The notes beneath the pieces are model-generated. The model saw only the letters and a list, made by a program, of their open reading frames with translations, did no database searches and was not told the DNA's origin. DNA of 64,000 bases from Phycisphaerae bacterium (GTDB taxonomy: Bacteria > Planctomycetota > Phycisphaerae > WQYP01). The position numbers and the translations under genes are program-made. The stretch lies in contig DATJSN010000001.1 in assembly GCA_035504095.1 (NCBI GenBank), positions 54,519 through 118,518 on the forward strand, in the 5' to 3' direction. Shown piece after piece: positions 21,903 to 64,000 of this stretch (position 1 is the first letter of the stretch; each line of letters opens with the position of its first letter).

Positions 21903-22556
21903 ATGAAAAATATAATATTAGTAATACTTGGAGTGCTATCTTTTACTATAGGTGGCGCATTAGTCCTTGCTTGGCCCGTATTCGTCTATCTTTCAATTTT
22001 TGAGTTTGACGCGCCAAGCCGCGGTCCTTGGGATTATCCTGCTCGTTATGCCATCGTTTGTGCTCTTTTAGCTTATCCTATTCCGTATATTCTGGCTTTA
22101 ATCTTTTTAATACGACAATGGCATAGAGACAGATTTCATGTGTTAACCTCGCTTTCTGGCTTAATTCCATTTCTGTATATTGCTGGCTTTTTTACAATAA
22201 TAGTTCTGATTTCGACAACGATGTCTCATAAGACAATCGCACCAAATGTCATTTTGAAAACGGACGGGACCTATTATTCTTTAGTAGATAATAATGGGCG
22301 AGTGATTGTGGATCAAAACGTTATATCTTACGAAGTTATCGGTTCAAAACAATTGGTTTTGGTAAGACGAGCTCCTCTAAGGTTAGTAATCGACAATATT
22401 ACTACGTATAACTTATCAAACAACCTATATTATGCTGTAAATACGCTGAATGGTTCTGTATCAGCTCCTCTTTCTAAAAGTGAGTTCCAAAAAAAATATG
22501 CTTTGCCTGATGAATCGCAGGTATTCAAAGATTCGATGCAGATGCCGGGAGAATAA
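21903..22556 (+). CDS. Hypothetical membrane protein encoded in a low-GC island
   Basis: Four N-terminal TM helices and a soluble C-terminal domain. Local GC is far below the window average. No SD sequence. Confidence 0.5.
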   Translation: MKNIILVILGVLSFTIGGALVLAWPVFVYLSIFEFDAPSRGPWDYPARYAIVCALLAYPIPYILALIFLIRQWHRDRFHVLTSLSGLIPFLYIAGFFTIIVLISTTMSHKTIAPNVILKTDGTYYSLVDNNGRVIVDQNVISYEVIGSKQLVLVRRAPLRLVIDNITTYNLSNNLYYAVNTLNGSVSAPLSKSEFQKKYALPDESQVFKDSMQMPGE

Positions 22557-22706
22557 AAAAGACTCTGCATCTACTATTTTCTCCACCGTCCTCTGAGCCC
22601 TCTGTGATCTCTGTGGCCTGTTCCTCATCGTGATATATAGCTATCGAGCAGGGGGGATAATAAGGCGGCAGGTCAATTAAAAATTTTTGCCATATAATCT
22701 TGTGCC

Positions 22707-24236
22707 ATGGCGGCGTGGGTCAAAATCATCATTTATTTTACGCTCTGCATGCAATTGCGAGCCTATTGGAAATATATTCCCATTTCCTATGACACCACGC
22801 GTCTAACCTCGCCGGTAAAACAGGATGGATCCATAGATTACCTGGCGGCACTGAATATAAAATGTTCCCAGGGCGTGACGCCTGAAAATAATGCGGTGGT
22901 GGTTCTTCTGCGCGCTGCGGGATCAGATTATATTAATGGCCCACCGGACTATAAAAAAGAATATATGAATATGCTGGGTGTGATGTCACTGCCGTCGCCA
23001 AAACATCCGTTCGTTTATTTGTACGATTATTTATCCAAGCACGGTTTTCAATGGCAGGACGTGGACCACATTTATGGAGAGGTAACGAGAAAGCCTTTTA
23101 CCGATAGCCAATATCCGCAAGTGGGGCACTGGCTCGATTCACAACAGGACTTTATCAACGCCTATCTGGCGGCTTCGCAGATGTCGCATTGGTATGACCC
23201 TATTACTAGTAATACAGAACAATTCCAGATGTTGGCCGGTTTTCCCCGCCTGCTTTCGGCATTTAAATTTATGACGGAGAGTGTCGGGATAGATGCCATG
23301 TATGATCTTGGAGAAAACGACGTTGATGTTGCTTTGGATGACGCCCTGGCTATTCATCGTCTGACTCATTTACAAGCTCGAGTGTCGGCTATGGTCGTTC
23401 AATTAATGATCGCTGGAAGAGAAGAGGAATTCGCGGCCGATATCGACCAGCAAATCATTGCCAGTGGACTATTGAGCACAAATGACGCCAAACGAATGGC
23501 GGATGCTCTGGGTGATTTAAGGCCGCTGCCGGCCTTTTCAGAATCAATTGATGGTGAAGAACGTTATTTTGCACTTGATGCTCTTGAGAATCTCGCGCGG
23601 GGACGTCATTATCAAGTAGGCTTTTTGCAAGGTTTTGGTCCAGCCCAGCCGCAGGCGGCATTTTCTCAATTCGTTGGGCAACTATTGCCCCCGCAGCTTT
23701 CCTCCTGGGATCAAATTTCATATTTATTTGACTGGTGTGTGTTTAGAGTTGTTCCGGTTCATTATGTATTTTTAATGATCCAAGACAATCATTTTTATGA
23801 CGACTGGATGCGAATTTCTCAGGCTAAAACTTATGATCAGGCACTGTCTGAACAAAAAACGCTGAATCCAGAATCGCGTATCATGGACAGCTCATTTGCC
23901 GACGATATAGTCAAAACAATCGCATGGCGGCCGTATATTTCAAATCGCCTTATTCAGGAACAGTTCGCATATCAAACCATTCTTCCGATGGTGCGCACCG
24001 AATATGCCCTGGCCGCCTGGCATACCGATCATGGTGATTATCCCAAAGTTTTGACCGCATTAGTCCCGCAATATCTGTCCAGCGTTCCCATCGATCCGTT
24101 TGATGGCCAACCGTTGCGCTATGCGCCAACCGCCAACGGCTACAGGCTCTGGAGCATCGGCGCAACCAAACCAGGACTTACAGGGTGGTTTAGTACGGGT
24201 CTGCAATTCACCATGCCGCCGGAAAAGCAAGACTAA
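22707..24236 (+). CDS. Hypothetical protein (509 aa) with an N-terminal hydrophobic anchor
   Basis: Long ORF in a reduced-GC region. No recognised motifs. Confidence 0.5.
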   Translation: MAAWVKIIIYFTLCMQLRAYWKYIPISYDTTRLTSPVKQDGSIDYLAALNIKCSQGVTPENNAVVVLLRAAGSDYINGPPDYKKEYMNMLGVMSLPSPKHPFVYLYDYLSKHGFQWQDVDHIYGEVTRKPFTDSQYPQVGHWLDSQQDFINAYLAASQMSHWYDPITSNTEQFQMLAGFPRLLSAFKFMTESVGIDAMYDLGENDVDVALDDALAIHRLTHLQARVSAMVVQLMIAGREEEFAADIDQQIIASGLLSTNDAKRMADALGDLRPLPAFSESIDGEERYFALDALENLARGRHYQVGFLQGFGPAQPQAAFSQFVGQLLPPQLSSWDQISYLFDWCVFRVVPVHYVFLMIQDNHFYDDWMRISQAKTYDQALSEQKTLNPESRIMDSSFADDIVKTIAWRPYISNRLIQEQFAYQTILPMVRTEYALAAWHTDHGDYPKVLTALVPQYLSSVPIDPFDGQPLRYAPTANGYRLWSIGATKPGLTGWFSTGLQFTMPPEKQD

Positions 24237-24272: not shown

Positions 24273-26639
24273 ATGACCAGCGGTATAAATGATTCAAATT
24301 TTGTTTTAGCAACGAAAATATTTATGCCTTGTCGATTTAACATCGGTATCCCGGTGCTTCTGCTGGTCTTTGTTGCAGGCTTCGCTCGAGCCCAATCCAA
24401 CGTGGACTACATCGACCCCATGTTCGGTGCGATTACCGATGTTCCTCGCGACTGGGGTGACGCGGCCGGTAAGACATTTCCCGGCGCCGACACGCCGTTC
24501 GGCCTGGTGCAACTAAGTCCTGATACCATCACCGGTGGGGATAGGGGTTCAGGCTATTCGGCCGACGACAAAACCATTGAAGGTTTCAGTTTTCTGCACA
24601 TGTTGGGTGTAGGATGTTACGGCGACCTTGGTAACCTGCAGGTCATGCCTGAAACCGGACCGCTTATCATCGACCGCACTACGGCAAAAAGCGCATATCA
24701 ACAGAAAAATCAAGTCGCTACCGCCGGCTATTACAGCGTGGTTCTGGACCGTTACCAGGTGAAGACGGAATTGACCGCTGCGCCCCATGCCGGCTTCATT
24801 CGTTTTACTTTTCCAGCTTCGGTTTCCAGTTATATTAAATTCGATCTCGCTCGTCGCATCGGCAAGCTCGCCGACTCTCATTCCACGGCTCAATTCATAC
24901 ATCAGTTGGATGCTTATACCGTGGAAGGTTGGATATACTGCGACCCCAGCAGCGGTGGATACGGTTGTTTTCAACGCGTTTCGCACTATACCGTTTATTT
25001 CTACATGAAATTCCATGATCCGATTAAATCATTCGGTATATGGGATGGCCAGGATGTTTCGCGCAGTCTTACGGAACTGAACGGCAAGAATTCCGGTTTT
25101 TTCATTGAGTTTCCTACTACGCAGGGGCAGCAGGTCCTGGTTAAAGCAGGCATTTCTTTTGTGAGTATGGATGGCGCTCGCGCCAATCTTTTGCATGACA
25201 TTCCGGGTTGGGACTTTGACGCCGTTCACCAACAGGCACGAGCGCTTTGGGCCAGCGCCATCTCCAGAATAGATGTCGAAGGCGGTTCTGACGCAGACAG
25301 ACGGATTTTTTACTCGTCGCTTTATCAATCAATGATCGATCCGCGCAATATTGTAGATGTGAATGGTTACTACGCCAGCTCGGATGGCAAGCCACACAAG
25401 GCTAACGGATTTATCGTTCGCAGCATTTTTAGTGGCTGGGACGTATACCGCGCCGAATTCCCGCTCCAGAACCTGATCAATCGTAGCATGGTTAATGATG
25501 AAATTAATACGCTGATGCAATTAACCCAACAGGGTGACGTAAAGGGTCTTGCCCGCTGGGAATTGCTGGGTATAGACACAGGCGAGATGGTGGGCGATCC
25601 GGCCATTTCCATTATTGCCAATGCCTATCTGCAGGGAATTCGTGGTTACGATGTGCAGAAAGCCTATCAACTCTGTCGCGCCGTAGCGCTGGGGCCGGCC
25701 GATCAATCGAATCGCGTTGATTTTAACGATTGGATCAAGCACGGCTATTGCATGGGAAAACTGTCTATCTCCGCAACGCTCGACAATTCCTATGATGACT
25801 ACTGCCTGGCGCAGTTTGCTCAAGCACTTGGAAAGACCGACGATGCCGCTCAATTGTATAAATCCGCGCAAAATTACCGCAACATCTTTGATTCCAATAT
25901 CCAATGGTTTCACGGCCGCACTGTCGACGGTAATTTAATTCCCTGGCAGGGTTTCACGACATTTGGTCAGGGCTGTATCGAAAGCACTCCGGGACAGGAG
26001 GGTTGGTACGTGCCGCAGGATGTGCAGGGTTTAATCAATTTATTGGGCGGCCGGGACAAATTCGTCGCCCGGCTCAATGAAATGTTTGAGAAAACGACTC
26101 CGGCGATGATGGTGCAGTGGAATAATTATTACAATATCTCCAACGAAAACGTCGAGCAATGTGCGTTCATGTTCACTTATGCAGGCGCGCCTTGGCTTAC
26201 GCAGAAATGGTCCCGTTATACTTGCTCTACCGCATACAAGACTGGCCCATACGGTCTGCCTGGCAATGACGATGAAGGAGAATTATCCGCTTGGTATGTA
26301 CTGGCCGCTTCTGGTTTTTATCCCGTGTGTCCCTGCAGCAACGTTTATATCCTGGGTAGTCCGGTCTTCTCCCGGGTGACTTTCCATCTTGACTCAGCAT
26401 ATGCCGGTGGAGGAAAAACATTCAGCATCGTCGCTAAGAATAATTCCCCGGTCAATATCTATATCCAGTCGGCCCAGCTTGATGGAACGCCGCTCAAGCG
26501 CGCCTGGATCACCTATCAGGAAATTTCCAATGGCGGCACACTGGTACTCCAAATGGGGCCCACTCCCAATAAAACCTGGGGTTCTGATCCGCAAGACGCG
26601 CCGCTGTCGCTTTCCATGCCGCTACAAAAGCTGAACTGA
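24273..26639 (+). CDS. Secreted glycoside hydrolase, GH92-like (putative alpha-mannosidase family)
   Basis: Signal peptide. 'KTFPGADTPFGLVQLSPDT' and 'GFSFLHMLGVGCYGDLGN' resemble the GH92 N-terminal signatures. Confidence 0.45.
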   Translation: MTSGINDSNFVLATKIFMPCRFNIGIPVLLLVFVAGFARAQSNVDYIDPMFGAITDVPRDWGDAAGKTFPGADTPFGLVQLSPDTITGGDRGSGYSADDKTIEGFSFLHMLGVGCYGDLGNLQVMPETGPLIIDRTTAKSAYQQKNQVATAGYYSVVLDRYQVKTELTAAPHAGFIRFTFPASVSSYIKFDLARRIGKLADSHSTAQFIHQLDAYTVEGWIYCDPSSGGYGCFQRVSHYTVYFYMKFHDPIKSFGIWDGQDVSRSLTELNGKNSGFFIEFPTTQGQQVLVKAGISFVSMDGARANLLHDIPGWDFDAVHQQARALWASAISRIDVEGGSDADRRIFYSSLYQSMIDPRNIVDVNGYYASSDGKPHKANGFIVRSIFSGWDVYRAEFPLQNLINRSMVNDEINTLMQLTQQGDVKGLARWELLGIDTGEMVGDPAISIIANAYLQGIRGYDVQKAYQLCRAVALGPADQSNRVDFNDWIKHGYCMGKLSISATLDNSYDDYCLAQFAQALGKTDDAAQLYKSAQNYRNIFDSNIQWFHGRTVDGNLIPWQGFTTFGQGCIESTPGQEGWYVPQDVQGLINLLGGRDKFVARLNEMFEKTTPAMMVQWNNYYNISNENVEQCAFMFTYAGAPWLTQKWSRYTCSTAYKTGPYGLPGNDDEGELSAWYVLAASGFYPVCPCSNVYILGSPVFSRVTFHLDSAYAGGGKTFSIVAKNNSPVNIYIQSAQLDGTPLKRAWITYQEISNGGTLVLQMGPTPNKTWGSDPQDAPLSLSMPLQKLN

Positions 26640-29125: not shown

Positions 29126-30787
29126 TTAAAAGCCGAAGGCGATCTCAGCAGTCACACCGCTGAAGCGTGGATTGTCGGAGGCGACAACACCGCTCACCAT
29201 ACCGGTGTCGGGGGCAAAGTTATAATACTGCTGATAGACGTACTCTACTTTGGTGAGAATACTCTTGGTCAGCCAGTAGCCGCCGCCAACCTGAACGCGT
29301 CCGACCCAGCCATTGGTGTCGACGCCATGAACAGCACCGGCATAAGCAAAACTATATTGTGCCGCCACATACAATGGAGCGGTGATATGGTAAGTCGCCA
29401 TGGCCTGCCCATAAAGCCACCGTTCGTCGTAGGCGGAGTCCTGGGTCCATCCGACATTTCCATACATTTCCCACGGCCAGTGGTTCCAGGTTATATCACC
29501 CTGATAAGCCTGAACATCGAGTCCGGCTTCAGGTGTGATCTGGCCGCCATCATCACCGGCATTGAAAATGCCGTTATAAGGTTCGCCACTGCGTGTGGAG
29601 GCATACAGATCCGTGATCTGATTATCGGTAGCGAGATCTTCGGCGTTAGCAGTGCCTCCGAGGTCGCAATAGTATACGGAAGCCGATAGCCGTAAATCAT
29701 TGCCGATATAGCCCCAAACTTTGCCGTGAACAGCAGGATTGCTGCCATAATCAAAGTAGCCGGTAGTAGTGCCGTTGCTAAATCCAGCCAGCCAGTATAT
29801 GGGACCTTTGACGGAGTAGAGTTCGAAACCGATTTGTTCTGCGCTGGGATCCACCACGGCGTTTCCAATCAATGGGTTAAGCTCAACGAAAGCGTTGTTC
29901 GACCGGTGGAAGTTTTGATCACCGAAGTCGATGTCAAATGCACCGGCTTTGAGATTGATATAGTTAAAGATATCTCCAATTGGACCGCCGGCGAAAGGAG
30001 GGGGCAATTGTTTAATGATCAAATAACCCTGGTCGCCATACGTCGTGCTGGGGTGCCCAACGCTGGATAGGTACAAATCGAAGAAGACATCCAATTTCCC
30101 GGGAATGGTTGCCAGAAAATCGAGATTGCCATAGGCCGTTTGGAAGCCCGGATCTAAACCAGGATACTCTACTGCGGGCATTGGAGGAGTGTGATAAGCG
30201 GCTTGCTGGGTGAGTGCCTGATAACGGCCGACGGTTTGCACGCCTATGTAAAATCGCATGTCCCCGAGCTGGCCTATCTGCATGTTCATATCAGGCCGAA
30301 TGTGTGAGGGATTCTGGTTTTCGAAAGGCGAAAAATAGTTGATGCCAGTTGGAGGAGTAAACATGTTCTGAAACGTCTCGGAAATGTTATTATCGGTAGG
30401 ATGTTCGGCAAGGTCCGCCGAAATCGTTTCGGAGTTGGACATGACCTCTTTGTAAATCGAATCAATGGCTTTGGCCTGGGCCTCGGCCGTGGCCTGAGCT
30501 GTGGCCTGGGATTCCGCTGTCGTGGCATTTTGCGTTTTTAGAACGGCGATCTGCTGTTCCAGGCTTGCCTCCGTAGCCTGGCTGGCGGCCTGGTCTTTTT
30601 TGAGAGCGGCCAACTGCTGCGCCATTGCCTGCATCTCGGCTTGTACTGCTGTGTTGCTGGTTGTTGTGGTGGTTGCGGCTGAAGTTGAGCTTGAATTTGC
30701 AGCGGCGGTATCGGCCCATAATGCCGGCACCGGCAAAGTTACGGCTGCAAGTGCGATACACATAGCCATTTTTTGTTTGAATGTCAT
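29126..30787 (-). CDS. Outer-membrane beta-barrel (porin-like) protein with an N-terminal coiled coil
   Basis: Signal peptide. Ala/Gln-rich heptad segment 'AVQAEMQAMAQQLAALKKDQAASQ...'. Gly/Tyr-rich alternating strands. C-terminal '...AEIAFGF' ends in Phe as in OMP beta-barrels. Confidence 0.5.
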   Translation of the reverse strand: MTFKQKMAMCIALAAVTLPVPALWADTAAANSSSTSAATTTTTSNTAVQAEMQAMAQQLAALKKDQAASQATEASLEQQIAVLKTQNATTAESQATAQATAEAQAKAIDSIYKEVMSNSETISADLAEHPTDNNISETFQNMFTPPTGINYFSPFENQNPSHIRPDMNMQIGQLGDMRFYIGVQTVGRYQALTQQAAYHTPPMPAVEYPGLDPGFQTAYGNLDFLATIPGKLDVFFDLYLSSVGHPSTTYGDQGYLIIKQLPPPFAGGPIGDIFNYINLKAGAFDIDFGDQNFHRSNNAFVELNPLIGNAVVDPSAEQIGFELYSVKGPIYWLAGFSNGTTTGYFDYGSNPAVHGKVWGYIGNDLRLSASVYYCDLGGTANAEDLATDNQITDLYASTRSGEPYNGIFNAGDDGGQITPEAGLDVQAYQGDITWNHWPWEMYGNVGWTQDSAYDERWLYGQAMATYHITAPLYVAAQYSFAYAGAVHGVDTNGWVGRVQVGGGYWLTKSILTKVEYVYQQYYNFAPDTGMVSGVVASDNPRFSGVTAEIAFGF

Positions 30788-37912: not shown

Positions 37913-40900
37913 TTATATCGACGGCTCGGCCCCGATGGTTCCCACCAAATGTTTGACATATTCCGGATCGCTCACCCGGGCAAATTGAGATTCGGCTTCG
38001 GCAAGCCTGGCTTGCATTTCCAAATGGCCGCTTCCACTTTCACTGCCCGATTCGTCGATAAAGGCCTGCACGCTTTGAATGTGCCGTTTCCATAGGGCAA
38101 TGTCGCGCTCTTGTTTGGTCTTCAGCCGGTCGTGATACCACTGGCTGCTGAGCAAATAATCACGGGTAAACATGGCGCGAATATCGGGGTGATGAACGTC
38201 TTTACCCTCATAATTGCCGTGGGCCATGATGTGCAAGAGCGCCTTGAGCGGAGGGCAGGCCGTTTCGACTGAACCATCCTCAAAATATCCCAAGGCCACG
38301 CGCTGCTGGGTTTGCACAATGTTCATAATGCCGTCGACATAAACATCCATACTTTGACTTTCAGGCTTGAGCATGGCCAAATCAAAAATGCGGGCTGGAT
38401 TGTCAAAAATTCGGCCGAGGAACGTACGCATGAACTTGGCAGTGATGCGATAGCCGAGACGGCTGGCGGGCACCGGACCGTCCTTGTAAAGAAAATCATG
38501 AAGCTTTTCCAAATGGCCATTGGTAATCAGAAATTCCGGCTCGCGTTCGTGAGGATGCAAACGGCACCATAGTTCCGGGATCAGCAGGCTGATGTCGTGA
38601 TCGACACGGCAATTCGGGCCGACATAACCAGCGGCGGTGGAAAATCCACCCAGACCAGTGAGTATGTAGCTGACCAGCGCGGCGTTGAGATCGGCGGTGG
38701 TTTGCAGGGCATTAAAGGGCCCTTTGGTCATGGCGCCTTCGCTGCCAGCGCCGGTGGTAGAAGGACTTTTTCCGGTGAGGCTGGAAATAAAATCCATGAA
38801 CAGTTCAGGCAATTCCTGGTAATGAATAGGGTTAAATACAGCCAGAGCACGTATGCCGGATTCGGGATCGGGCGGATTATTGCGCCGCCCTAGCAAAACT
38901 GCGTGAACAGGAAAGGCGATGGTGGTTGTCAACGGCAGCGCTCGCGCCAGGCGGACGCCTATCTGGGCGACATAAGTGTCGAGCGGTTTGGCCAGGTCGG
39001 TGCGGAATTGCAAATAGCGCGGATTTTTTGATGGCTTACCGCCAATAAGCCGGGGATGGGCGGACGAAACCACATAACCATCGCCGGCGTTGGCGGCCTG
39101 GGTGAGCAATTCTTTCATTGGAGGCGTGTAGCCGTCGAATTCGGTGATACGTCCGACAATTTCTCGTATTGCATGTGTGTCGAGCGGTTCGAAATTAGAG
39201 AGAAAGTTGTCTTTTTGCGCCAGGTCCGACTCGGTCTGCTTATCCAGGCCGGGGTGAATGGCGTCATCAGGGCGCTGGAAGAGCCGTTGTTCAACGTTGG
39301 TCACCAGCTTCAGGCTCGGTCCGGACAGGCCGAACGGTTTGGAATGGATCCAGGAAACCGGCAGGGTAACCGAAGCGGAGATGTCGTCTTCCATCTGGAT
39401 TTTGGCGGCCGGGAAAAAATCCTGGCGGACTTTAAACGTGCGCCACGCTCCATCGGGCAGCAGGCCGACGCGCAAATAGGTGCCGCCGACTTTACGGTTG
39501 TCCATCTTGAGTTCATGGCCCTGTTCGCCGTTGATGATGTCGACGGAAAAATGTTTGCGCCAGTCGTCGCCCCATTCCCGTTTGTAAAGGCGCTTGATCA
39601 GAAACACCAGCGCCAGAATGTCGCTGTGAATTGAACTGAGCCAGTGGTTGTACTCATCGGTGTAATCAGCAGTGGGGGTGAGCAGTTTGATCACGCTGCC
39701 CAGCGACCGCTCCAGACTCAAAATCGGACGGCTGGGTATTTGATCGTAATCGTGCGGCGCTTTGCCCGGTTTCCAACGAACGCTGTGATCTTTGAGCAGT
39801 ATTGCTTCAACCTGGTCCAGATCGTGCTGCAGATTCCCCACATAAATCGGGCCGTAGATCATGTAATCAGAAAGACTTTTGCTGATTTCGCTTTTGCCGC
39901 CGCCGCTGACCGTACATGGTTTGTGGCAGAAAACGCCTTCCGCGGAAGTTACAACGAGGCGAAAACGACCGGTTCCCGGATGCCGGCTCAGATAGACTTT
40001 CTGGCCGGACGGTGTCAGGTAAATATTGTCTGCCAGCAGGGGCAGGCTCTGCTCTTTGTCGTCGGTTTTCCATTGGATTTGCAGTGAGTGTAGATCCATG
40101 TGGGCGTCTTCGGGCAGATAAATAACATTGGGATGCAGTTTGTCCACGGCATAACCGGTGGGCGAAACGTCCATGATCGGGGCGTAGTCGCGAACCACAT
40201 CGGCAAAGGTCCGCCGATTCCAATATTTTTCATGCTGCACAAATTCATTGCCCAGGCTGTAGCTGGGATAGGCTACTGCGCCGCCGGCGTGTTCTTCTTC
40301 AGCGTTGCCCATCAGGTTGGCGGCAAAACTGATCTGAGTTTTAACTTCCTTTTTGCAATAACCGTAATAATTGTCAGCGATCAGGGTAACTATAACGCCC
40401 GCGGAACTGCGGCAGCAGACTTTGAACGCGGAGCCGCCGTTATATAGTTCATCCGGAGTTTTCCAGCACATGCCGTCGCGGCGCTGCCGCTCCGTGGCGT
40501 CTTTAAACTCTGGCAGGCCGAGTTGTTTTTTGGTCAGGCTGACCAGGTGCGGTGCCAGGATGACACAGCCCGTGTGCCCGGTCCAGTGATAAACGTCCAG
40601 GCCGGCGTCGTTTTCCGGCAATACAGGATCACCGGCGTTGCCGAAAATCGATTCGACAAAGTCCAGATTGCTTACGAGGCTGCCAGGTGCAAAGAAGCGG
40701 CACTCCATGGTTTTTTGCGGGCTGGTGGCGGGAATTTCCGGAACGACAATGGGCCGGAGCAATAATGAACAGAAAATTTCCACCGGGTGCGCGGCGTCGG
40801 CCGTATAGGGCAGCAATAAAAACTGGCGCGGTGGATTAACCGCGTGGCGGAACAAGGCTGCAAAAACGTGCGCGGAGACCGCGATTTTGTCCGCCGGAAC

Positions 40901-41362
40901 CGGCAGGCCGCAGTCCGCGATGTGGAACGTTCCCTGCGTGGTGCGCCGGTCGCTGCGCGGATTGTGCAATACGCCGTTGCGCACGCGATAACTTGTAAGC
41001 AGATTGCTTTCAAAATGATCACGACCTTCAGGAAATGAAAGCTCCCGTGACAGTCCCGGTTCATCGAGGCTCAGCGTGGACGACGGCAGGCGCAATGGTT
41101 CTCGAAGATTCAGTGGCGCAAATAATTCGGCGAGAAAGGTTTCGATGCGGCGGTCGGCCGGACAACGGTAATGGCGGAGCAGTAGGCTCTTCTGGCGGAA
41201 ATTAGCCAAAAGACCGGAGGCAAGATGTTCCAGTCCGTCGCCCTGAGTGTTTTGCTCATCGGATGTAAAACCGAGCGCCTGAAACTTCAGACGGATAAAG
41301 CGGTCGATGGCGGCGCGACCATTGGCGGCGGTGGGGCTTTTTTGAGTACCGACGTGCGACAT
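37913..41362 (-). CDS. Large (1149 aa) cytoplasmic protein of unknown function
   Basis: Uninterrupted 3.45 kb ORF. No signal peptide or TM segment. No motif I can assign. Co-directional with the methyltransferase and the S41 protease genes. Confidence 0.6.
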   Translation of the reverse strand: MSHVGTQKSPTAANGRAAIDRFIRLKFQALGFTSDEQNTQGDGLEHLASGLLANFRQKSLLLRHYRCPADRRIETFLAELFAPLNLREPLRLPSSTLSLDEPGLSRELSFPEGRDHFESNLLTSYRVRNGVLHNPRSDRRTTQGTFHIADCGLPVPADKIAVSAHVFAALFRHAVNPPRQFLLLPYTADAAHPVEIFCSLLLRPIVVPEIPATSPQKTMECRFFAPGSLVSNLDFVESIFGNAGDPVLPENDAGLDVYHWTGHTGCVILAPHLVSLTKKQLGLPEFKDATERQRRDGMCWKTPDELYNGGSAFKVCCRSSAGVIVTLIADNYYGYCKKEVKTQISFAANLMGNAEEEHAGGAVAYPSYSLGNEFVQHEKYWNRRTFADVVRDYAPIMDVSPTGYAVDKLHPNVIYLPEDAHMDLHSLQIQWKTDDKEQSLPLLADNIYLTPSGQKVYLSRHPGTGRFRLVVTSAEGVFCHKPCTVSGGGKSEISKSLSDYMIYGPIYVGNLQHDLDQVEAILLKDHSVRWKPGKAPHDYDQIPSRPILSLERSLGSVIKLLTPTADYTDEYNHWLSSIHSDILALVFLIKRLYKREWGDDWRKHFSVDIINGEQGHELKMDNRKVGGTYLRVGLLPDGAWRTFKVRQDFFPAAKIQMEDDISASVTLPVSWIHSKPFGLSGPSLKLVTNVEQRLFQRPDDAIHPGLDKQTESDLAQKDNFLSNFEPLDTHAIREIVGRITEFDGYTPPMKELLTQAANAGDGYVVSSAHPRLIGGKPSKNPRYLQFRTDLAKPLDTYVAQIGVRLARALPLTTTIAFPVHAVLLGRRNNPPDPESGIRALAVFNPIHYQELPELFMDFISSLTGKSPSTTGAGSEGAMTKGPFNALQTTADLNAALVSYILTGLGGFSTAAGYVGPNCRVDHDISLLIPELWCRLHPHEREPEFLITNGHLEKLHDFLYKDGPVPASRLGYRITAKFMRTFLGRIFDNPARIFDLAMLKPESQSMDVYVDGIMNIVQTQQRVALGYFEDGSVETACPPLKALLHIMAHGNYEGKDVHHPDIRAMFTRDYLLSSQWYHDRLKTKQERDIALWKRHIQSVQAFIDESGSESGSGHLEMQARLAEAESQFARVSDPEYVKHLVGTIGAEPSI

Positions 41363-58460: not shown

Positions 58461-60560
58461 TCACCTTTTTTCTTTGCTGCTGCACCATTTATGCCACATA
58501 CCCCGATACGCCGCTTCAACATTTTGTGCGAAACGTTTGGCGTCCATCAATGGCGATTTTTTCATCATTGGCCGCAACGTTCGGCGAAGTTCCGCCAGTC
58601 GCGGCAAATCACTTGCAAGTTTCAAAGCGATTTGCACGTATTCGTCCGGTGTTTGGGCAATCAACTCCGGCAGTCCAATATTGGTTAACATGCTGTATCC
58701 CGCTCGTCCCACCGCCGTTTGGCCGCGGAGGGTCACGACCGGAACGCCCATGAGCAGGCTGTCGCAGGTTGTGATTCCTCCGTTATAAGGAATCGGGTCC
58801 AGGGCAATATCAATCTGGTTATAAATCCGCATATATTGTTCCCAGGACTGGGTTCCGACGAAGTCGACGCGATCAGGTGAAATGCCTTGTTGTTCGATAT
58901 GTTGTCGTACATCCTCCAGATGCACCCCCGGATTCGCATGAATCATCATTCTGGCATTTGGCAGCTTCCGTAGGATCCGTGTCCAAAGATCCCACGCCGC
59001 CGGTGAAACCTTGGCGAAATTATTTATGCAACCGAAGGTGATGAATCCTTTGGACGAAGCAGGCAGGGGGGCAATTTCCGGCGCCGTCCCGCCGGGCTGA
59101 TAGCACCAGTATGTTTGCGGCAATCGGATGGTCTGTTCGCTGTAAACGACCAGGTCTGTTTCCGGCGGATCAAGAAATGCATCGGAAAAACGATAATCAA
59201 CCGTGTCCATGCCGGTAGAGCCGGGATAACCCAGATAAGTCGCCTGAACCGGTGCGGGCTTATAGGCGAACACCAACAGTCGATTGTGGGCCGTATGTAC
59301 GGATAAGTCGATCAGAATATCGATTTGATCCTCGCGAATCATCTGCGCGGTCCGTTGATCGCCGATTCCCACGATGCTGCGCCACACATCGCAGCAGGAA
59401 CGTATTCGCCGGGTCCATTCATCGGAAGAAACCACGCCGGAATAAGCGAAAATTTCCACTGCCTGGCGATCATGCTGCTGGAGCAGAGGCAAAAGATTCC
59501 AGCCTACGACGTGGGCGCAAAAATCCGGCGAAATATAGCCGATTTTCAAGCGCCGTTTCGGATCGGGCCTGTTGGTGCATGGCTGGATTAATTGTTTCAA
59601 TGGCTCGGCATGCAGCTTATTCCAGTTGCGCAGCTCCTGATGAATCATCGGAGCGTCATAATCGGGATGATGATGCAGGGCGTATATCAGGTTGCTGTGA
59701 ACCTGATTGGCGCGGGGATCGAATTTTAAAGCGGTGCGGTATGCCGCGATGCATTCATCAATACACCCCTGATCTTTGAAAATGTTGCCGAGATTATTGT
59801 GGGCTTCGATCAAATCGGGTTTAAGCTCGAGCGCGCGGTGATAGGCGTTAATGGCTTGAGGGTATTGATACAGATCCTTAAACGCGTTGCCCAGATTGAC
59901 ATAAAGCTCAACCATACAGGGCCTGATCCGCAGCGCCGCCTGATACGCCGCTACGGCCTGAGCGATTTTGCCCTGGTCTTTAAGCGCCGCCCCCAGATTG
60001 TTATAAGCTTCGGCAAGATCGGGCCTGTTTTGTAGCGCGGCGCGAAAGGCGCTTATCGCTTCGTCGAGCAAACCTTGCGCCTTGAATGTGCATCCCAGAT
60101 TGTAATGCGGCTCGGCAAATTGTGGATTCAATCGTATCGCGGCGCCAAACGCGGCCATGGCTTGAGGATAATCCTGCAGATTGTGAAAGGCATTGCCGAG
60201 ATTGTTATACGCCTGGGCATAATCGGGTTTGAGTCGGATGGCGTTCTGATATGCGTCAACAGCCGCCTGGACCTGCCTCAGGCTCATCAACACCAGCCCC
60301 AGATTGTTGTAATAAGAAGCCTCGGAGGGACGGCTTCCGATTGCCAGCTGGATGTACTCGGCGGCAATCTGATTTTGATCTCTCTGATGCGCCAGCATCC
60401 CCAGACAATTCAGAGCATCCGGATGATTTGGCTCTACCGACAATATACGTTTGTAGATTGCTTCGGCCTCGGAGAATCTGCCGGCATGATGGTGTTGCAA
60501 AGCCAGGGCAAACACCTGCTGGAGGGGCATTATATTTGGGTTGGAATTAGAATTGGGCAT
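58461..60560 (-). CDS. TPR-repeat protein with a C-terminal GT41 (O-GlcNAc transferase/SPINDLY-like) domain, paralog 1
   Basis: N-terminal run of about 9 TPR units ('AEAYNNLG...' repeated). C-terminal domain 'IGYISPDF...DILIDLSVHT...LGYPGSTG...FGCINNFAKV' matches the OGT catalytic region (COG3914). Confidence 0.75.
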   Translation of the reverse strand: MPNSNSNPNIMPLQQVFALALQHHHAGRFSEAEAIYKRILSVEPNHPDALNCLGMLAHQRDQNQIAAEYIQLAIGSRPSEASYYNNLGLVLMSLRQVQAAVDAYQNAIRLKPDYAQAYNNLGNAFHNLQDYPQAMAAFGAAIRLNPQFAEPHYNLGCTFKAQGLLDEAISAFRAALQNRPDLAEAYNNLGAALKDQGKIAQAVAAYQAALRIRPCMVELYVNLGNAFKDLYQYPQAINAYHRALELKPDLIEAHNNLGNIFKDQGCIDECIAAYRTALKFDPRANQVHSNLIYALHHHPDYDAPMIHQELRNWNKLHAEPLKQLIQPCTNRPDPKRRLKIGYISPDFCAHVVGWNLLPLLQQHDRQAVEIFAYSGVVSSDEWTRRIRSCCDVWRSIVGIGDQRTAQMIREDQIDILIDLSVHTAHNRLLVFAYKPAPVQATYLGYPGSTGMDTVDYRFSDAFLDPPETDLVVYSEQTIRLPQTYWCYQPGGTAPEIAPLPASSKGFITFGCINNFAKVSPAAWDLWTRILRKLPNARMMIHANPGVHLEDVRQHIEQQGISPDRVDFVGTQSWEQYMRIYNQIDIALDPIPYNGGITTCDSLLMGVPVVTLRGQTAVGRAGYSMLTNIGLPELIAQTPDEYVQIALKLASDLPRLAELRRTLRPMMKKSPLMDAKRFAQNVEAAYRGMWHKWCSSKEKR

Positions 60561-60575
60561 AAAAATTTCCGTTGA

Positions 60576-63083
60576 TCACACCTTTTGCTGATTGCACCAT
60601 TTGCGCCACATCTGTCGGTAAGCCGCCTCAACGTTGCGGGCGAAACGCGGCGCATCCATCAATGACGACGCTTGAATGCGCCGACGAAGGGTGGAGTGAA
60701 ACTGTGAGAGCCGCGGCAGATCGCTGGCGAGTTTAACAGCAATTTGAATATACTCTTCCTGCGTTTGGGCGATCAGTTCCGGCAGGCCGACATTGGTCAA
60801 AATCGAAACACCTCCGCGTCCCACGGCCATTTTACCGGACAAACTCACCACCGGCACACCCATCCACAAACAATCCATGCTGGTCATGAAGCCGTTATAG
60901 GGCCAGGTATCCAACCCGATATCGATGCGTTGGTAAATGTTCCAGAATTCGGTTTCATCCAGCCGGTCCAGAAACTCCACACGCTCGGTGGAAATATTTT
61001 CTCTGCTCAATGTATCCAGCACACGCCGGTGCGCAGGTCCCTGCGGCGCTTTGATCAGCAGCCGTGAATCAGGCACGGCCGCGAGCAGCTTGGCCCACAG
61101 GTTCAATATCTCGTCATTAACCTTGCAGAAGTTGTTCAGGCTGCCAAAGGTAACGCCGCCGGTTTTGTTCGCCGGCAATTCCGCGCTTGGCGCGACGCTG
61201 GTCAGGGGATAATAACACAAATGAGCATCCGGTAGGCGGATGGATTCTTCGCAATAGTATGCGTCGAACATGCCCGGCGGGTCCACGTAAGAATCGGTCA
61301 GACGGTAATCCATGGCGTCCATGCCGGTTGAGCCGGGATAACCCAGCCAGGAAACCTGCACAGGCGCGGGTTTGCGGGCAAAAATCAACAGGCGATTGTC
61401 GGATGAATGCAACGATAAATCCACCAGAATGTCGATCTCATCGTCGCGAATCATCTGGGCCGCCTGCCGGTTCTTCAGGCTCATGATGTCGCGCCAGACG
61501 TCGGCGCGCGCGCTTAATTGTTCGGTCATGGAATCCGGCCGCTGCACGCTGGAATAACAGTAAATCTGAAAATTCCCCCGGTCGTGCTCGGCCAGCAGCG
61601 GCAACATAACGCGCCCGATCACGTGTAGATAAAAATCCGGTGAAACATAACCGATCCTGAGCTTCCGCTCGGCATCGCGGTTATTGGCGTAAGGGACAAT
61701 AAATTTTTTCAGAGGCTGTTCATGCATCCGGTTCCAGCGCCGGAGTTCCTGTTGAATGCTCACGGCGTCGCAATCCGTTAGATAATGCATGGTCAGAATC
61801 AGATTGCTGTGCACGCGGTGCTTATGCGGATCAATCCGCAGGGCAATTTGATATTCATCGATGGCTTCAAGAATCAGTCCCTGATCCTTATATGTATTGC
61901 CCAGATTGTTGTGGGCCTCCAAAAAGTCGCGCTTATACTCTAGAGCCACGCGAAATTTATCGACTGCGTCTTCGAACCGTTGCCCTTCTCTGAACCAATT
62001 GCCTGTGTTGAAGTGCGCCTGGGCAAAATCAGGCTTAAGCGCCAGTGCCGTGGTATAACTTGCCAGCGCCGCAGCGTATTGTCTTTGCGCCTGAAGCACG
62101 ACGCCCAACAGGTTGTGCGCCTCAACGTAATCCGGCTGAAATTTCAAAGCCAGGCGCAACTCATCCTCAGCTTCCTTCTTTCGTCCAATCTGCCCAAGCA
62201 CCATGCCCAGGTTATGATGTATCTGAGCGTGATCGGGCTTGAGTTTGAGCGCCAGGCGATATTCCGCCATAGCCTGGGCAAATTCATGACGTTTGCTGTA
62301 TAAACCGCCCAGATTATTGTGTGCTTCGGCGTTATCCGGATTGAGTTTCACGGCCTTCAGGTAGGCTTGCAAGGCCTCTTGTTCACGTCCTTGTGTCTGC
62401 AATACAGCGCCGAGGCCGCAGTAAGCTTCTGCGTAATCCGGTTTTAATTTCAATAGTTCGCCAAATGCGGCCTGCGCCTCGTCGAAGAGCTTCATCTGCG
62501 TGAGCGTCAATCCCAGATTATTGTGCGCCTCAATCAGATTGGGTTTGATGGTTATGGCGCGGCGAAAAGCGGCGACCGCTTCGTCGAGTTGTTTCTGCTT
62601 TTGCAGCACGCAGCCCAGATTGTAATGCGCCTCGGCGAAACCCGGTTGGAGTCGCACGGCGTTTTCAAAAGCCGCGATTGCCCCGGCGTCGTCACCCTTA
62701 TCCTTGAGGATATTGCCCAGATTATTATGCGGCTCGGCGTAATCCGGCTGAAGTTCAATAGCGCGATGATAAGCGGCGGCGGCCTCATCCAGCCGCCCGC
62801 ATTCCCGCAAAGCCATTCCCAGGTTGTTTTGATAGATCGCGGTTGAAGGATTAACGTCGATCGCCTGCCGGATCAATTCCGCGGCGCGCTGGCTTTGTCC
62901 GCTCTGGAAGGCAATCATGCCCAGCAGATGCAACGCGTCTGGATGATTCGGCTGGAGCTGGAGTATTTGCCGGTAAATCGCCTCCGCTTCGGCGAGTCTT
63001 CCGGCCTGATGCTGCTGCACGGCCAGATTCAGGGCTTGCTCAACGCTCCTTATTGAACTTTTGGAATCATTGGATACCATCAT
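60576..63083 (-). CDS. TPR-repeat protein with a C-terminal GT41 (OGT/SPINDLY-like) domain, paralog 2
   Basis: About 12 TPR units. Same catalytic-domain blocks as paralog 1 ('IGYVSPDF', 'LGYPGSTGMDAMDYRL', 'FGSLNNFCKV'). Confidence 0.75.
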   Translation of the reverse strand: MMVSNDSKSSIRSVEQALNLAVQQHQAGRLAEAEAIYRQILQLQPNHPDALHLLGMIAFQSGQSQRAAELIRQAIDVNPSTAIYQNNLGMALRECGRLDEAAAAYHRAIELQPDYAEPHNNLGNILKDKGDDAGAIAAFENAVRLQPGFAEAHYNLGCVLQKQKQLDEAVAAFRRAITIKPNLIEAHNNLGLTLTQMKLFDEAQAAFGELLKLKPDYAEAYCGLGAVLQTQGREQEALQAYLKAVKLNPDNAEAHNNLGGLYSKRHEFAQAMAEYRLALKLKPDHAQIHHNLGMVLGQIGRKKEAEDELRLALKFQPDYVEAHNLLGVVLQAQRQYAAALASYTTALALKPDFAQAHFNTGNWFREGQRFEDAVDKFRVALEYKRDFLEAHNNLGNTYKDQGLILEAIDEYQIALRIDPHKHRVHSNLILTMHYLTDCDAVSIQQELRRWNRMHEQPLKKFIVPYANNRDAERKLRIGYVSPDFYLHVIGRVMLPLLAEHDRGNFQIYCYSSVQRPDSMTEQLSARADVWRDIMSLKNRQAAQMIRDDEIDILVDLSLHSSDNRLLIFARKPAPVQVSWLGYPGSTGMDAMDYRLTDSYVDPPGMFDAYYCEESIRLPDAHLCYYPLTSVAPSAELPANKTGGVTFGSLNNFCKVNDEILNLWAKLLAAVPDSRLLIKAPQGPAHRRVLDTLSRENISTERVEFLDRLDETEFWNIYQRIDIGLDTWPYNGFMTSMDCLWMGVPVVSLSGKMAVGRGGVSILTNVGLPELIAQTQEEYIQIAVKLASDLPRLSQFHSTLRRRIQASSLMDAPRFARNVEAAYRQMWRKWCNQQKV

Positions 63084-63204
63084 TTCACCACAGAGAACAC
63101 CGAGGTGTCACAGAGGTTCACAGAGAATGGTTATTCTAATATAAATTAGGAATATATTTCTTTGAGTCTCTGTATTTACTCCGTGTCCCCAGTGTACGCT
63201 GTGG

Positions 63205-64000
63205 TTAAGGTTGTGTCTGGGTACACCATTTCCGCCACATTTTCCGATACGCCGCTTCGATATTGTGCGCAAAGCGTTTGGCATCCATCAGCGGCGAGTT
63301 TTTCATGCGATCACGCAACGTCTTGCGCAGTTCCGTCAGTCGCGGTAAATCACCCGCCAATTTGGTCGCAATGTCCACATACTCTTCCGGCGTCTGGGCG
63401 ATCAGTTCCGGCAAGCCCACGTTGGTTAAAATCGACACGCCCCCGCGTCCTACCGCTGTCTTGCCCACCAGCGTAATCACCGGCACGCCCATGTATAATG
63501 AATCCAGACTTGTTATATGGCCATTGTAGGGAAAGGGATCAAGGGATATGTCAATTCGACCGAAAGATTCCAAATATTGTTTTCGCGGCATATAGTCCAT
63601 AAACATCACACGCCGGGAATCAATTCCGGTTTTCTTCAATTTCTCAATTAGTTCTTGGCGTGCCTCTCCCTGCGGCGTCAGCACAATCAATTGCGAATCA
63701 GGAACGGCGACCAGCACTTTTGCCCAGAGTTGCCATACGCCATCATTAATTTTAGAAAAGTTATTCAGGCAACCAAAAGTTATAAATCCATTTTTCATTC
63801 TGGGCAGATCAAGGTTATAGGGTTCTTTAGGTTGGGGAATGTAACACCACCATGTCTCCGGCAGACGGATGGTCTGTTCACTATAAACACTCAGATCCGT
63901 TTCTGGTGGGTCCAGGTAAGGATCAGAAAAACGGTAGTCCACGCTGTCCAGTCCCGTGCTGCTGGGATAACCCGCCCAGGTTACCTGGATGGGGGCCGGT
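63205..64000 (-). CDS. GT41 (OGT/SPINDLY-like) glycosyltransferase paralog 3, 5'-truncated by the window edge
   Basis: The frame is open to nt 64000. The C-terminal blocks match paralogs 1 and 2 ('VQVTWAGYPSSTGLDSVDYRF', 'FGCLNNFSKI'). Confidence 0.7.
   Translation of the reverse strand, partial: PAPIQVTWAGYPSSTGLDSVDYRFSDPYLDPPETDLSVYSEQTIRLPETWWCYIPQPKEPYNLDLPRMKNGFITFGCLNNFSKINDGVWQLWAKVLVAVPDSQLIVLTPQGEARQELIEKLKKTGIDSRRVMFMDYMPRKQYLESFGRIDISLDPFPYNGHITSLDSLYMGVPVITLVGKTAVGRGGVSILTNVGLPELIAQTPEEYVDIATKLAGDLPRLTELRKTLRDRMKNSPLMDAKRFAHNIEAAYRKMWRKWCTQTQP

Follow-up and report, generated by a model that had tools for sequence, protein, structure and literature searches.

A tandem array of old, diverged TPR-GT41 paralogues of the SPINDLY/OGT superfamily in a Phycisphaerae bacterium

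Three adjacent genes of a Phycisphaerae bacterium, denoted g1, g2 and g3, probably encode anciently diverged bacterial TPR-GT41 paralogues that belong to the SPINDLY/OGT superfamily, act by a SPINDLY/OGT-like mechanism and have long kept different donors, different acceptors, or both. The genes lie at one end of the stretch of 64,000 nucleotides that was analysed (the window). The fold, the domain order and the essential residues of the superfamily are kept, the duplications are old, and arrays of this kind are common. By analogy with known members of the superfamily, the acceptors would be proteins and the linkage would be to the oxygen of serine or threonine.

Gene organization

The coordinates of the genes and of their parts are listed in Table 1. 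A preceding reading of the sequence only had described three tandem genes on one strand, and its coordinates and lengths agree with ours; 264 complete codons of g3 fall within the window. The g1 protein is 100% identical to a protein from a Phycisphaerae MAG (P0001). An exact-protein look-up of g2 returned no match, and neither did an exact DNA search of the locus in GTDB representative genomes, this genome being no species representative.

Table 1. Coordinates of the array genes, their domains and spacers in the window
Feature	Position	Strand	Evidence
g1, TPR-GT41 protein, 699 aa	58461..60560	-	ORF; Pfam; homologue identity; residue mapping; tree
g1, TPRs (~residues 13-300)	59664-60560		
g1, catalytic GT-B domain (~residues 300-699)	58461-59663		
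gap between g2 stop and g1 start, 15 nt	60561..60575	-	sequence
g2, TPR-GT41 protein, 835 aa	60576..63083	-	ORF; Pfam; AF2; Foldseek; residue mapping
g2, 12.5 TPRs (~residues 14-432)	61779-63083		
g2, connector helix (between TPRs and GT-B domain)			
g2, GT-B catalytic domain	60576-61778		
g2, TPR 7 segment (...GLGAVLQTQGREQEALQAYLKAVKLNPD)	62334..62417	-	matches the final 84 nt of the ENA contig at 83/84 positions
spacer between g3 stop and g2 start, 121 nt, A+T-rich	63084..63204	-	promoter/terminator scan; sequence
g3, TPR-GT41 protein, C-terminal part	63205..64000	-	translation; Pfam; ENA contig; NCBI partial protein

The promoter and terminator scan of the locus gave no signal exceeding the expectation from shuffled sequences, and the intergenic gaps are empty: no terminator-like or promoter-like site was seen between g2 and g1, and no consensus promoter or terminator between g3 and g2. 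As the gap between g2 and g1 is too small for a promoter or a terminator, these two genes are probably transcribed together. According to their ORFs and Pfam domains, the genes 3' of g1 have housekeeping functions and are oriented convergently to it. The array has no linked gene that would be a candidate for an acceptor. A signal peptide is absent from each of the three proteins.

Both the window and the source contig stop short of the g3 start. L001, the ENA contig, runs on for 638 nt, which extends the known length of g3 to 477 aa, including two TPRs and the cap; the NCBI protein (P0121) is annotated as 'partial' and has 458 aa. Both public assemblies end inside g3, and thus full-length g3 is absent from public data. 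The ENA contig ends with 84 nt of the g3 TPR region (window-equivalent 64555-64638) that are nearly identical to the g2 segment listed in Table 1, and this identity stops abruptly at a TPR boundary. Given the break and the near-identity, the 5' part of g3 may be mis-joined or incomplete. Both observations would also fit an assembly artefact, where one gene, collapsed or expanded in assembly, gives the appearance of paralogues, as the sequence-only reading had allowed. To this we give practically no credence: the divergence of the three genes within the window is too large for copies of the same reads, and the window and the ENA contig agree over 15,540 nt save 5 mismatches, g2 differing by two residues between the two copies. 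Assembly duplication is thereby excluded as the origin of the array.

Fold and essential residues

All three proteins match the GT41 model PF13844 (Glyco_transf_41), with E-values of 4.7e-54, 2.1e-55 and 8.9e-37 and scores of 184, 188.5 and 127 bits for g1, g2 and g3, respectively, the curated cut-off being 25. This confirms the OGT/SPINDLY-type catalytic domain that had been ascribed to them; Pfam TPR families are matched in addition. In a sequence search of PDB with the whole g1 protein, the best match is SPINDLY (SPY, E 2e-142). With the catalytic domain, the matches are SPINDLY (5e-98), TtOGT (7e-85), human OGT (hOGT, ~1e-45) and XcOGT (~1e-42). There is no specific NCBIfam model for g1-g3, which have generic TPR matches only; matches to PilW and LcrH/SycD above the cut-off were disregarded, as their scores come from summed repeats.

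The AF2 model of g2 (pLDDT 94.7, pTM 0.85) shows 25 TPR helices that are followed by a connector and a GT-B domain, and is very confident across the catalytic domain. The top Foldseek matches of this model are SPINDLY, OGT, TtOGT and XcOGT, the best being SPINDLY (7y4i, E 1e-53; 8dti, TM 0.86) and TtOGT having TM 0.85. Thus g2 has a GT-B fold after a TPR superhelix and a connector helix. The same fold can be expected for g1 and g3 from the identity of 51-59% among them and with g2. The intervening domain of metazoan OGT is absent: SPINDLY and TtOGT align over the full length of the catalytic domain (~400 aa), the alignment with hOGT falls in two stretches, and the g2 model contains no extra domain.

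The equivalents of SPINDLY H495, N661, K665, G746, T749 and E752 (the latter as Asp) are kept in g1, g2 and g3. These residues are near-invariant in an alignment of 337 sequences, comprising 335 bacterial homologues (g1-g3 included), Arabidopsis thaliana SPINDLY (AtSPY) and TtOGT. The pyrophosphate Lys (hOGT K842, SPY K665) is present in 335 of the 337 sequences, and the N-lobe His (hOGT H498, SPY H495) in 313, the three array proteins having both.

TPR arrays and the C-terminal motif

The g1 protein has eight TPRs and a capping repeat (~8.5 repeats), and g2 has twelve and a cap (~12.5). The difference in length, 136 aa, equals 4 x 34, that is, four TPRs. The earlier claim that the three arrays differ in repeat number therefore holds for g1 and g2; it does not extend to g3, whose array runs into the end of the contig. 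In this superfamily, an Asn ladder within the TPR superhelix holds the acceptor peptide (PMC10027727). Its NLG motifs, spaced by 34 residues, occur seven times in the 8.5 repeats of g1 and ten times in the 12.5 repeats of g2. A search for tandem and direct repeats recovered the TPR periodicity of 102 nt, with units 61-80% identical in DNA, and no recent internal duplication within the genes.

The three C-terminal 20-mers quoted in the sequence-only reading were found as stated. The motif is contained in the consensus of an alignment of 70 sequences (...SPLMDAPRFARNxEAAYRxMWRxWC) and is recognisable in Arabidopsis SPINDLY. Being family-wide, it is uninformative on the recency of the duplication. 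Sub-functionalisation through the TPR arrays is possible. On the other hand, donor-site residues differ among g1, g2 and g3, so the divergence extends beyond the TPRs.

Age of the duplications

The array had been interpreted as a recent expansion, to be dated by pairwise alignment of DNA and proteins. These alignments reveal old, diverged copies. Protein identity between g1 and g2 is 46% over the full length; over the last 263 aa it is 59% between g1 and g3 and 56% between g2 and g3. The similarity of DNA is 67-74% and patchy. Under identical residues, third bases at four-fold degenerate positions match in 41-42% of cases, compared to 28-30% expected from composition, and synonymous sites are thus near saturation. 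In a tree of 48 catalytic domains built by neighbour joining, where the bacterial sequences are separate from the outgroup AtSPY, g1, g2 and g3 were monophyletic in 0 of 100 bootstraps. Instead, g1 belongs to one old subfamily and g3 to another (86/100 in both cases), and g2 has the longest branch and an ambiguous placement. A relative of g1 in another genome is 69% identical to it, closer than its own array mates.

All this contradicts a recent tandem triplication, sub-functionalised through the number of TPRs with the OGT-like catalytic domain unchanged. The genes are indeed same-strand neighbours of identical architecture, with highly similar C-terminal motifs and a difference of exactly four TPRs between g1 and g2. 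However, besides the identity values, the near-saturated synonymous sites, the tree and the outside relative of g1, the catalytic pockets are unlike each other, the C-terminal motif is common to the family, and the TPR units within genes are too dissimilar in DNA for recent repeats. A recent triplication is thus highly improbable.

Occurrence of arrays

The family is large, with 21,181 representative clusters (50% identity) at E<=1e-30. At least two GT41 C-lobes within 17 kb were found in 36 of 83 related loci, and at least three in 14, the maximum being five. Such arrays, with two to five tandem copies, are found repeatedly in Planctomycetota, Verrucomicrobiota, Nitrospira, Proteobacteria and Actinomycetota, and they mix subfamilies, for example H-loop/H-loop/G-loop in locus L004. 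As the copies are old and diverged and the family often occurs in arrays, the arrangement is ordinary. The neighbours of the array (DnaJ-like, GlyRS, NuoH and squalene-hopene cyclase genes) occur in none of the 83 related loci, and no orthologous array by which to date the arrangement was identified among them.

A literature search for Planctomycetes GT41 proteins or characterised bacterial SPINDLY-like enzymes found nothing specific. Bacterial members of the family are poorly characterised, as the sequence-only reading had remarked.

Donor-site residues

A triad of residues determining donor specificity was defined by Kumar et al. 2023 (PMC10027727); it is K689/A731/Y744 in SPINDLY (K/A/Y) and L866/R904/C917 in OGT (L/R/C). 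By residue mapping, the triad is H/I/Y in g1, K/I/Y in g2 and L/S/Y in g3. The SPINDLY triad is complete in none of the three; as for the OGT triad, Leu is present in g3 only, and Arg and Cys in none. The donor loops are YNGGITT in g1 ('G-loop' subfamily), YNGFMTS in g2 and YNGHITS in g3 ('H-loop' subfamily). Four other SPINDLY positions are occupied, in the order g1/g2/g3, by V/V/S (496), G/F/H (747), I/M/I (748) and Y/F/Y (728). Thus none of g1-g3 has the full set of SPINDLY fucose contacts, S496 and T747, and ribose contact, T748; in g1 and g2 the equivalent of S496, which in SPINDLY orients the acceptor serine, is Val. As the triads match neither SPINDLY nor OGT, the donor sugar cannot be assigned from the residues. 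By their mixed triads, g1-g3 may belong with the 'intermediate' prokaryotic TPR-GTs of Kumar et al. 2023; among the 103 sequences of that study, this group has a mixed pattern and clusters with neither the SPINDLY-like nor the OGT/SEC-like clan.

It is quite unlikely that g1-g3 are true O-GlcNAc transferases using UDP-GlcNAc. JGI does name homologues 'protein O-GlcNAc transferase', and g3 and its subfamily have the Leu of hOGT L866 and an hOGT-like NGHTT loop. However, the gatekeeper (hOGT C917, SPY Y744) is Tyr in all three proteins, and in SPINDLY the N-acetyl group is in steric conflict with this residue (PMC9715652; PMC10027727). The uracil-reading Arg (hOGT R904) is Ile in g1 and g2 and Ser in g3, the intervening domain is absent, and the scan of ten other window ORFs against Pfam revealed no GH84 O-GlcNAcase. 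Further, TtOGT and XcOGT share the Tyr and were nearly or wholly inactive as O-GlcNAc transferases in vitro (PMC9715652), which makes the activity and the acceptor class of such bacterial enzymes uncertain. The active-site residues therefore give no justification for the label 'O-GlcNAc transferase' in the sequence-only reading.

Another possibility is that g1-g3 are SPINDLY-type protein O-fucosyltransferases using GDP-fucose. SPINDLY is the top match in both sequence and structure, each protein carries the gatekeeper Tyr, and g2 has the guanine-reading Lys as well. On the other hand, the K689/A731/Y744 triad is incomplete in each protein, S496 is kept in g3 alone, and T747, which contacts fucose in SPINDLY and whose T747A substitution retains 10% activity (PMC10027727), is replaced by G, F and H. 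Related MAGs do contain genes with the full K/A/Y triad and a YxGTTTT loop (L028, L076). Assignment of g2 to the SPINDLY-like K-class was rejected, as g2 is farther from it (at most 49% identity) than from the L/H-loop class (at most 58%). The O-fucosyltransferase reading is thus unlikely.

The g2 protein is an orphan: its closest relatives are 58-59% identical, and none exceeds 59%. No other of the 337 aligned sequences has its loop YNGFMTS, and Lys at SPY position 689 occurs in no other bacterial sequence of this alignment. Compared to the nearest subfamily, where these positions are almost fixed, the pocket changes are L->K at 689, H->F at 747 and T->M at 748. With three such substitutions, g2 could be impaired rather than re-specified. 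A drifted, catalytically impaired g2 serving as a TPR scaffold or a regulator of its neighbours would also agree with its long branch, its ambiguous placement and the lack of close relatives. However, the 835-aa ORF is intact, the essential Lys, His, Asn, Gly, Thr and Asp are all retained, the structural model is very confident over the whole catalytic domain, and two residues only differ between the two assemblies, which leaves this explanation doubtful.

The residues also suggest a bolder scheme, in which the enzymes of the array use different donors. The guanine-reading Lys of g2, if acquired convergently, points to a GDP-sugar, the OGT-like Leu of g3 to a UDP-sugar, and the His and G-loop of g1 to a third donor. 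Phycisphaerae would then have multi-sugar cytoplasmic protein O-glycosylation, with mixed-class arrays as its genomic signature; this system would be the bacterial counterpart of the plant SPY/SEC pair and might be its evolutionary source. We regard this scheme as tentative and rather unlikely as a whole.

Proposed mechanism and significance

The preferred explanation remains a set of long-diverged paralogues with a common mechanism. In g1 and g2, a TPR superhelix at the N-terminus is followed by a connector helix and then by the two lobes of the GT-B domain, and g3 is presumably built alike. An extended stretch of the acceptor protein would be held on the Asn ladder in the superhelix and fed to the active site, where one sugar would be moved from a nucleotide sugar to the hydroxyl of Ser or Thr, the invariant Lys (the equivalent of SPY K665 and hOGT K842) binding the pyrophosphate. 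Since the base-reading position, the phosphate/ribose loop and the number of TPRs all differ, the most likely division is by donors and/or acceptors. Such a division of labour would have been kept for a long time, rather than following from a fresh triplication.

As it stands, the finding is of little weight, as TPR-GT41 genes are abundant and tandem arrays recurrent, and the three genes are additional members of a known, poorly characterised family. It does provide a correction, as the database names 'O-GlcNAc transferase' are unsupported by the donor-site residues. It also provides a lead: arrays often join subfamilies that differ at the donor-specificity positions known from SPINDLY and OGT. 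If these classes use different sugars, the arrays would offer an easy route to bacterial cytoplasmic glycosylation systems and to enzymes whose donors can be screened biochemically. As bacterial O-fucosyltransferases, the strongest candidates are not g1-g3 but those relatives in which the SPINDLY triad is complete (L028, L076).

Comparison with known systems

The best match in sequence and fold is Arabidopsis SPINDLY (PDB 7y4i, 8dtf-8dti), a GT41 protein O-fucosyltransferase. Like g1 and g2, it has a TPR superhelix with an Asn ladder, a connector and a GT-B domain, and lacks the intervening domain. Besides the essential residues listed above, the equivalent of Y744 is common to SPINDLY and g1-g3. 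The differences are in the donor triad, in T747 and S496, which are mostly replaced, and in T748 and H728, which are replaced in all three proteins. SPINDLY is a single gene in plants, whereas the array genes are bacterial and multi-copy.

TtOGT from Thermobaculum terrenum (PDB 5djs) and XcOGT from Xanthomonas campestris (2jlb, 2vsy) are bacterial TPR-GT41 proteins, also lacking the intervening domain and sharing the gatekeeper Tyr (Y419, Y463) with g1-g3. TtOGT is the closer of the two to the array proteins, XcOGT having TM 0.7-0.8. Both have far fewer TPRs and other residues in the donor site, TtOGT for example having the triad I/T/Y and the loop YSGCTTS. Neither has a physiological substrate that was demonstrated, and transfer of O-GlcNAc by TtOGT was not seen in vitro (PMC9715652). 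Human and Drosophila OGT resemble the array proteins in the TPR Asn ladder, the GT-B core and the essential Lys (K842), and the g3 subfamily in the Leu at L866 and the NGHTT loop; unlike g1-g3, they have the intervening domain, the gatekeeper Cys and the uracil-reading Arg.

The HMW1C/NGT enzymes, soluble N-glycosyltransferases also of GT41, are distant matches in the C-lobe (PDB 3q3e and 8j30, E ~1e-14; NCBIfam NF049992, E 2e-13). They have an all-alpha domain in place of the TPRs and modify Asn. Membership of the array proteins in this group was rejected, as NF049992 has a cut-off of 1000 bits and the scores reach 49.7 and 43.2, and TPRs are present.

Finally, Ogt of Synechococcus elongatus (Synpcc7942_0051), a bacterial GT41/OGT homologue whose role was defined genetically, is needed for glycosylation of the PilA pilin, and its function requires the catalytic Lys445 (PMC9306852). 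This protein, single-copy and cyanobacterial in contrast to the array considered here, is the best precedent for bacterial members of the family glycosylating specific proteins.

Gene layout, fold and surroundings

The three TPR-GT41 genes at the window end, g1, g2 and g3, lie head to tail, with gaps of 15 nt (g2/g1) and 121 nt (g3/g2) in which a promoter and terminator scan found no consensus promoter or terminator. All three match Pfam GT41 far over the threshold, and g1 and g2 have hits to many TPR families besides. The sequence-only reading was correct in the sizes, common strand and GT41 assignment of the genes, and the C-terminal 20-mers it quoted are all present. When the whole window was searched by tblastn with the domains of g1, no further GT41 copies were found. 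The TPRs contain an N-L-G asparagine ladder with 34-residue spacing (7 times in g1, 10 times in g2). The N-termini start straight in the TPR region, with no signal peptide obvious by eye.

Among solved structures, Arabidopsis SPINDLY (SPY) is the closest by sequence, with E 2e-142 for g1 and 5e-98 when only the catalytic domain of g1 is used. Next come Thermobaculum TtOGT (7e-85), animal OGT (about 1e-45), where the match falls into two stretches because of the OGT intervening domain, and XcOGT (about 1e-42). The AlphaFold2 model of g2, with a 70-sequence alignment as input, is very confident (pLDDT 94.7, pTM 0.85) and contains 25 TPR helices, then a long connector helix, then an alpha/beta domain with two lobes. 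Its top Foldseek match is again SPINDLY (E 1e-53; TM 0.86 with 8dti, the complex with GDP-fucose), and TtOGT has TM 0.85. The genes are correctly placed as GT41 plus TPR.

Among the genes around the array there is no candidate for a linked acceptor or sugar-nucleotide synthesis gene, and in a synteny comparison none of the related loci shares the genes that flank the array here, so that synteny gives no date for it. Elsewhere in the window, a low-GC patch (G+C 43.5% vs about 50-52% on either side) may be an acquired island. Glycosidase-family genes lie on both sides of it; no link between them and the GT41 genes is apparent.

Features of the window, with positions on the whole stretch
Feature	Position	Strand	Remarks
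g1	58461-60560	-	ORF, 699 aa
g2	60576-63083	-	ORF, 835 aa
g3	63205 to window end	-	264 codons inside the window
108-aa ORF	downstream of g1 (gene orientation)	convergent	no Pfam match
DnaJ/CbpA-like gene	downstream of g1 (gene orientation), with the 108-aa ORF
GlyRS, NuoH, squalene-hopene cyclase	farther downstream of g1, past the DnaJ/CbpA-like gene
84-nt near-identical stretch, g2 copy	62334-62417
84-nt near-identical stretch, g3 copy	64555-64638 (window-equivalent)		L001:1-84
Differences from L001	53884, 53898, 57193, 60609, 62981		single-base
GH20-like hexosaminidase homologue	18083-19963	+
Low-GC patch	22001-24000
ORF in patch	21903-22556		217 aa, no Pfam match
ORF in patch	22707-24236		509 aa, no Pfam match
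GH92 alpha-mannosidase-family gene	24273-26639	+
Large ORF	29126-30787	-	553 aa, no Pfam match at E<=1e-5
Large ORF	37913-41362	-	1149 aa, no Pfam match at E<=1e-5

Truncation of g3

The ENA contig L001 (97 kb), which carries the gene of P0001, a Phycisphaerae MAG protein 100% identical to g1, matches the window from 48461 to the equivalent of 64638 apart from 5 mismatches. There g3 extends to 477 aa before the contig ends, and the NCBI g3 protein (P0121, 458 aa) is annotated as partial; thus g3 is cut by assembly, not by the window alone. The last 84 nt of L001, in the TPR region of g3, are identical to TPR 7 of g2 in 83 of 84 positions. This identity breaks off sharply at a repeat boundary, and the stretch lies exactly at the end of L001; the NCBI contig stops 57 nt short of that end. 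Either gene conversion between the paralogues or an assembly join would explain the stretch, which is probably the reason why both assemblies break inside g3. At the five positions where the window differs from L001, a contig of the same population, L001 has T, and the window has C at four and A at one; two of the differences alter g2 residues (A35T, M825I).

Age of the copies

The array had been read as a recent tandem triplication. As full-length proteins g1 and g2 are 46% identical, and over the last 263 residues g3 is 59% identical to g1 and 56% to g2. DNA can be aligned only in patches, at 67-74% identity. Where the amino acids are identical, the third bases of four-fold degenerate sites match in 41-42% of cases vs 28-30% expected from composition. 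A neighbour-joining tree built from 48 catalytic domains recovered monophyly of the three in 0 of 100 bootstraps. Two of them fall into separate clades, g1 with donor loop xGG(I/T)TT and g3 with NGHTT (support 86/100 each); g2 is a lone branch, placed without support. Relatives of g1 in other genomes reach 64-69% identity, and g2 has no relative above 59%. The closest relative of g3, at 61-64%, is the second gene of a TPR-GT41 tandem pair (666 and 635 aa) with which a further contig from this ENA metagenome sample starts (L002, k141_1600347, ERZ27256528).

By these comparisons g1, g2 and g3 are old paralogues from different subfamilies. A recent expansion is contradicted by the protein identities, the nearly saturated four-fold sites and the tree, and assembly duplication is ruled out, since the copies are too diverged. 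The near-identical C-termini reflect a motif common to the family and recognisable even in Arabidopsis SPY.

Donor-site residues

SPINDLY residues were mapped onto an alignment of 337 catalytic domains. All three genes retain H495, N661, K665, G746 and T749 (SPY numbering) and have Asp for E752; these six positions are required for catalysis or pyrophosphate binding (PMC9715652; PMC10027727). The gatekeeper (SPY Y744, hOGT C917) is Tyr throughout. According to Kumar et al., donor specificity is set by three residues, SPY-689, SPY-731 and SPY-744 (PMC10027727).

Specificity residues and donor loops
Protein	SPY-689	SPY-731	SPY-744	Loop 744-750
SPINDLY	K	A	Y	YAGTTTT
hOGT	L	R	C	CNGHTTG
g1	H	I	Y	YNGGITT
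g2	K	I	Y	YNGFMTS
g3	L	S	Y	YNGHITS

With these triads, neither the SPY-like nor the OGT-like signature is present. The residues fit the "mixed pattern" described at these positions for an intermediate prokaryotic group (PMC10027727) and single out no donor sugar. UDP-GlcNAc looks unlikely as the donor, because the gatekeeper is Tyr and the Arg is absent; TtOGT and XcOGT, the two bacterial Tyr-gatekeeper homologues with solved structures, showed little or no OGT activity (PMC9715652).

What is new and most useful here is the divergence of the paralogues at positions setting donor specificity in characterised eukaryotic enzymes. The g1 loop belongs to a common class, and g3 has Ile at SPY-748, where nearly all other sequences of its subfamily (H-loop) have Thr. 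The g2 loop is absent from every other sequence of the alignment, where g2 is also the sole bacterial case of Lys at SPY-689; its donor pocket has no equal in any sequence examined. The copies may accordingly use different donors, or g2 may have lost its activity. Within the close family (337 domains, P0002-P0341) the gatekeeper is Tyr in 221, Trp in 75 and Cys in 27, which hints that paralogues within one genome have several different donor specificities.

Arrays in related genomes

A scan of one genome per species yielded 582 relatives. The best 80 of these come mainly from Tepidisphaeraceae and Phycisphaerales MAGs and also include Gemmataceae, Pirellulaceae, Verrucomicrobiota, Nitrospira, Proteobacteria, Actinomycetota and one cyanobacterium. 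GT41 C-lobes were counted per locus over 83 related loci, none longer than 22 kb: 47 have one copy, 22 two, eight three, four four and two five, and in multi-copy loci the genes are nearly all on the same strand, about 2 kb apart. In an exhaustive HMMER search the number of representative clusters was 42,136 with a cut-off of E<=1e-3 and 21,181 with E<=1e-30, including single chains with two to six catalytic domains. The g1-g3 array is nothing unusual for so large a family, where tandem arrays are common.

Many proteins of 1000-3800 aa in the representative library (P0342-P0491) have two to six GT41 domains (six matched stretches in P0342, 3732 aa); they may be tandem arrays that have fused, or else gene calls with read-through. 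Two further proteins as called, P0122 and P0124 (Gemmataceae MAG), start in frame with the C-terminus of a GT41 paralogue lying upstream. In P0124 this piece is almost identical to its own C-terminus, and therefore truly recent tandem duplicates exist elsewhere in the TPR-GT41 family.

Comparison with characterised systems

Arrays are either uniform or mixed in loop class. Two loci, L004 (a tandem triple on a JGI contig) and L035, each have a pair of H-loop genes plus a single G-loop gene and resemble the g1-g3 array, provided that g2 counts as H-loop lineage. Some arrays contain a third class (K-class), in which the loop is exactly that of SPINDLY, YxGTTTT, and position 689 is Lys. The full K/A/Y triad with this loop occurs in L028 (about 5113 and 6979) and L076 (about 10919), in arrays of Phycisphaerales and Tepidisphaeraceae MAGs; L069 and L077 are further SPINDLY-triad or K-class loci, and Nitrospira and Bacteriovoracaceae arrays have four consecutive K-class copies. 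Membership of g2 in this class was rejected, as its identity is at most 49% to K-class vs at most 58% to L/H-loop sequences; its Lys-689 therefore arose independently.

Judging from their residues, the K/A/Y-triad genes are better candidates than g1, g2 and g3 for bacterial protein O-fucosyltransferases that use GDP-fucose. A precedent for bacterial members glycosylating specific proteins is Synechococcus Ogt with its pilin (PMC9306852).
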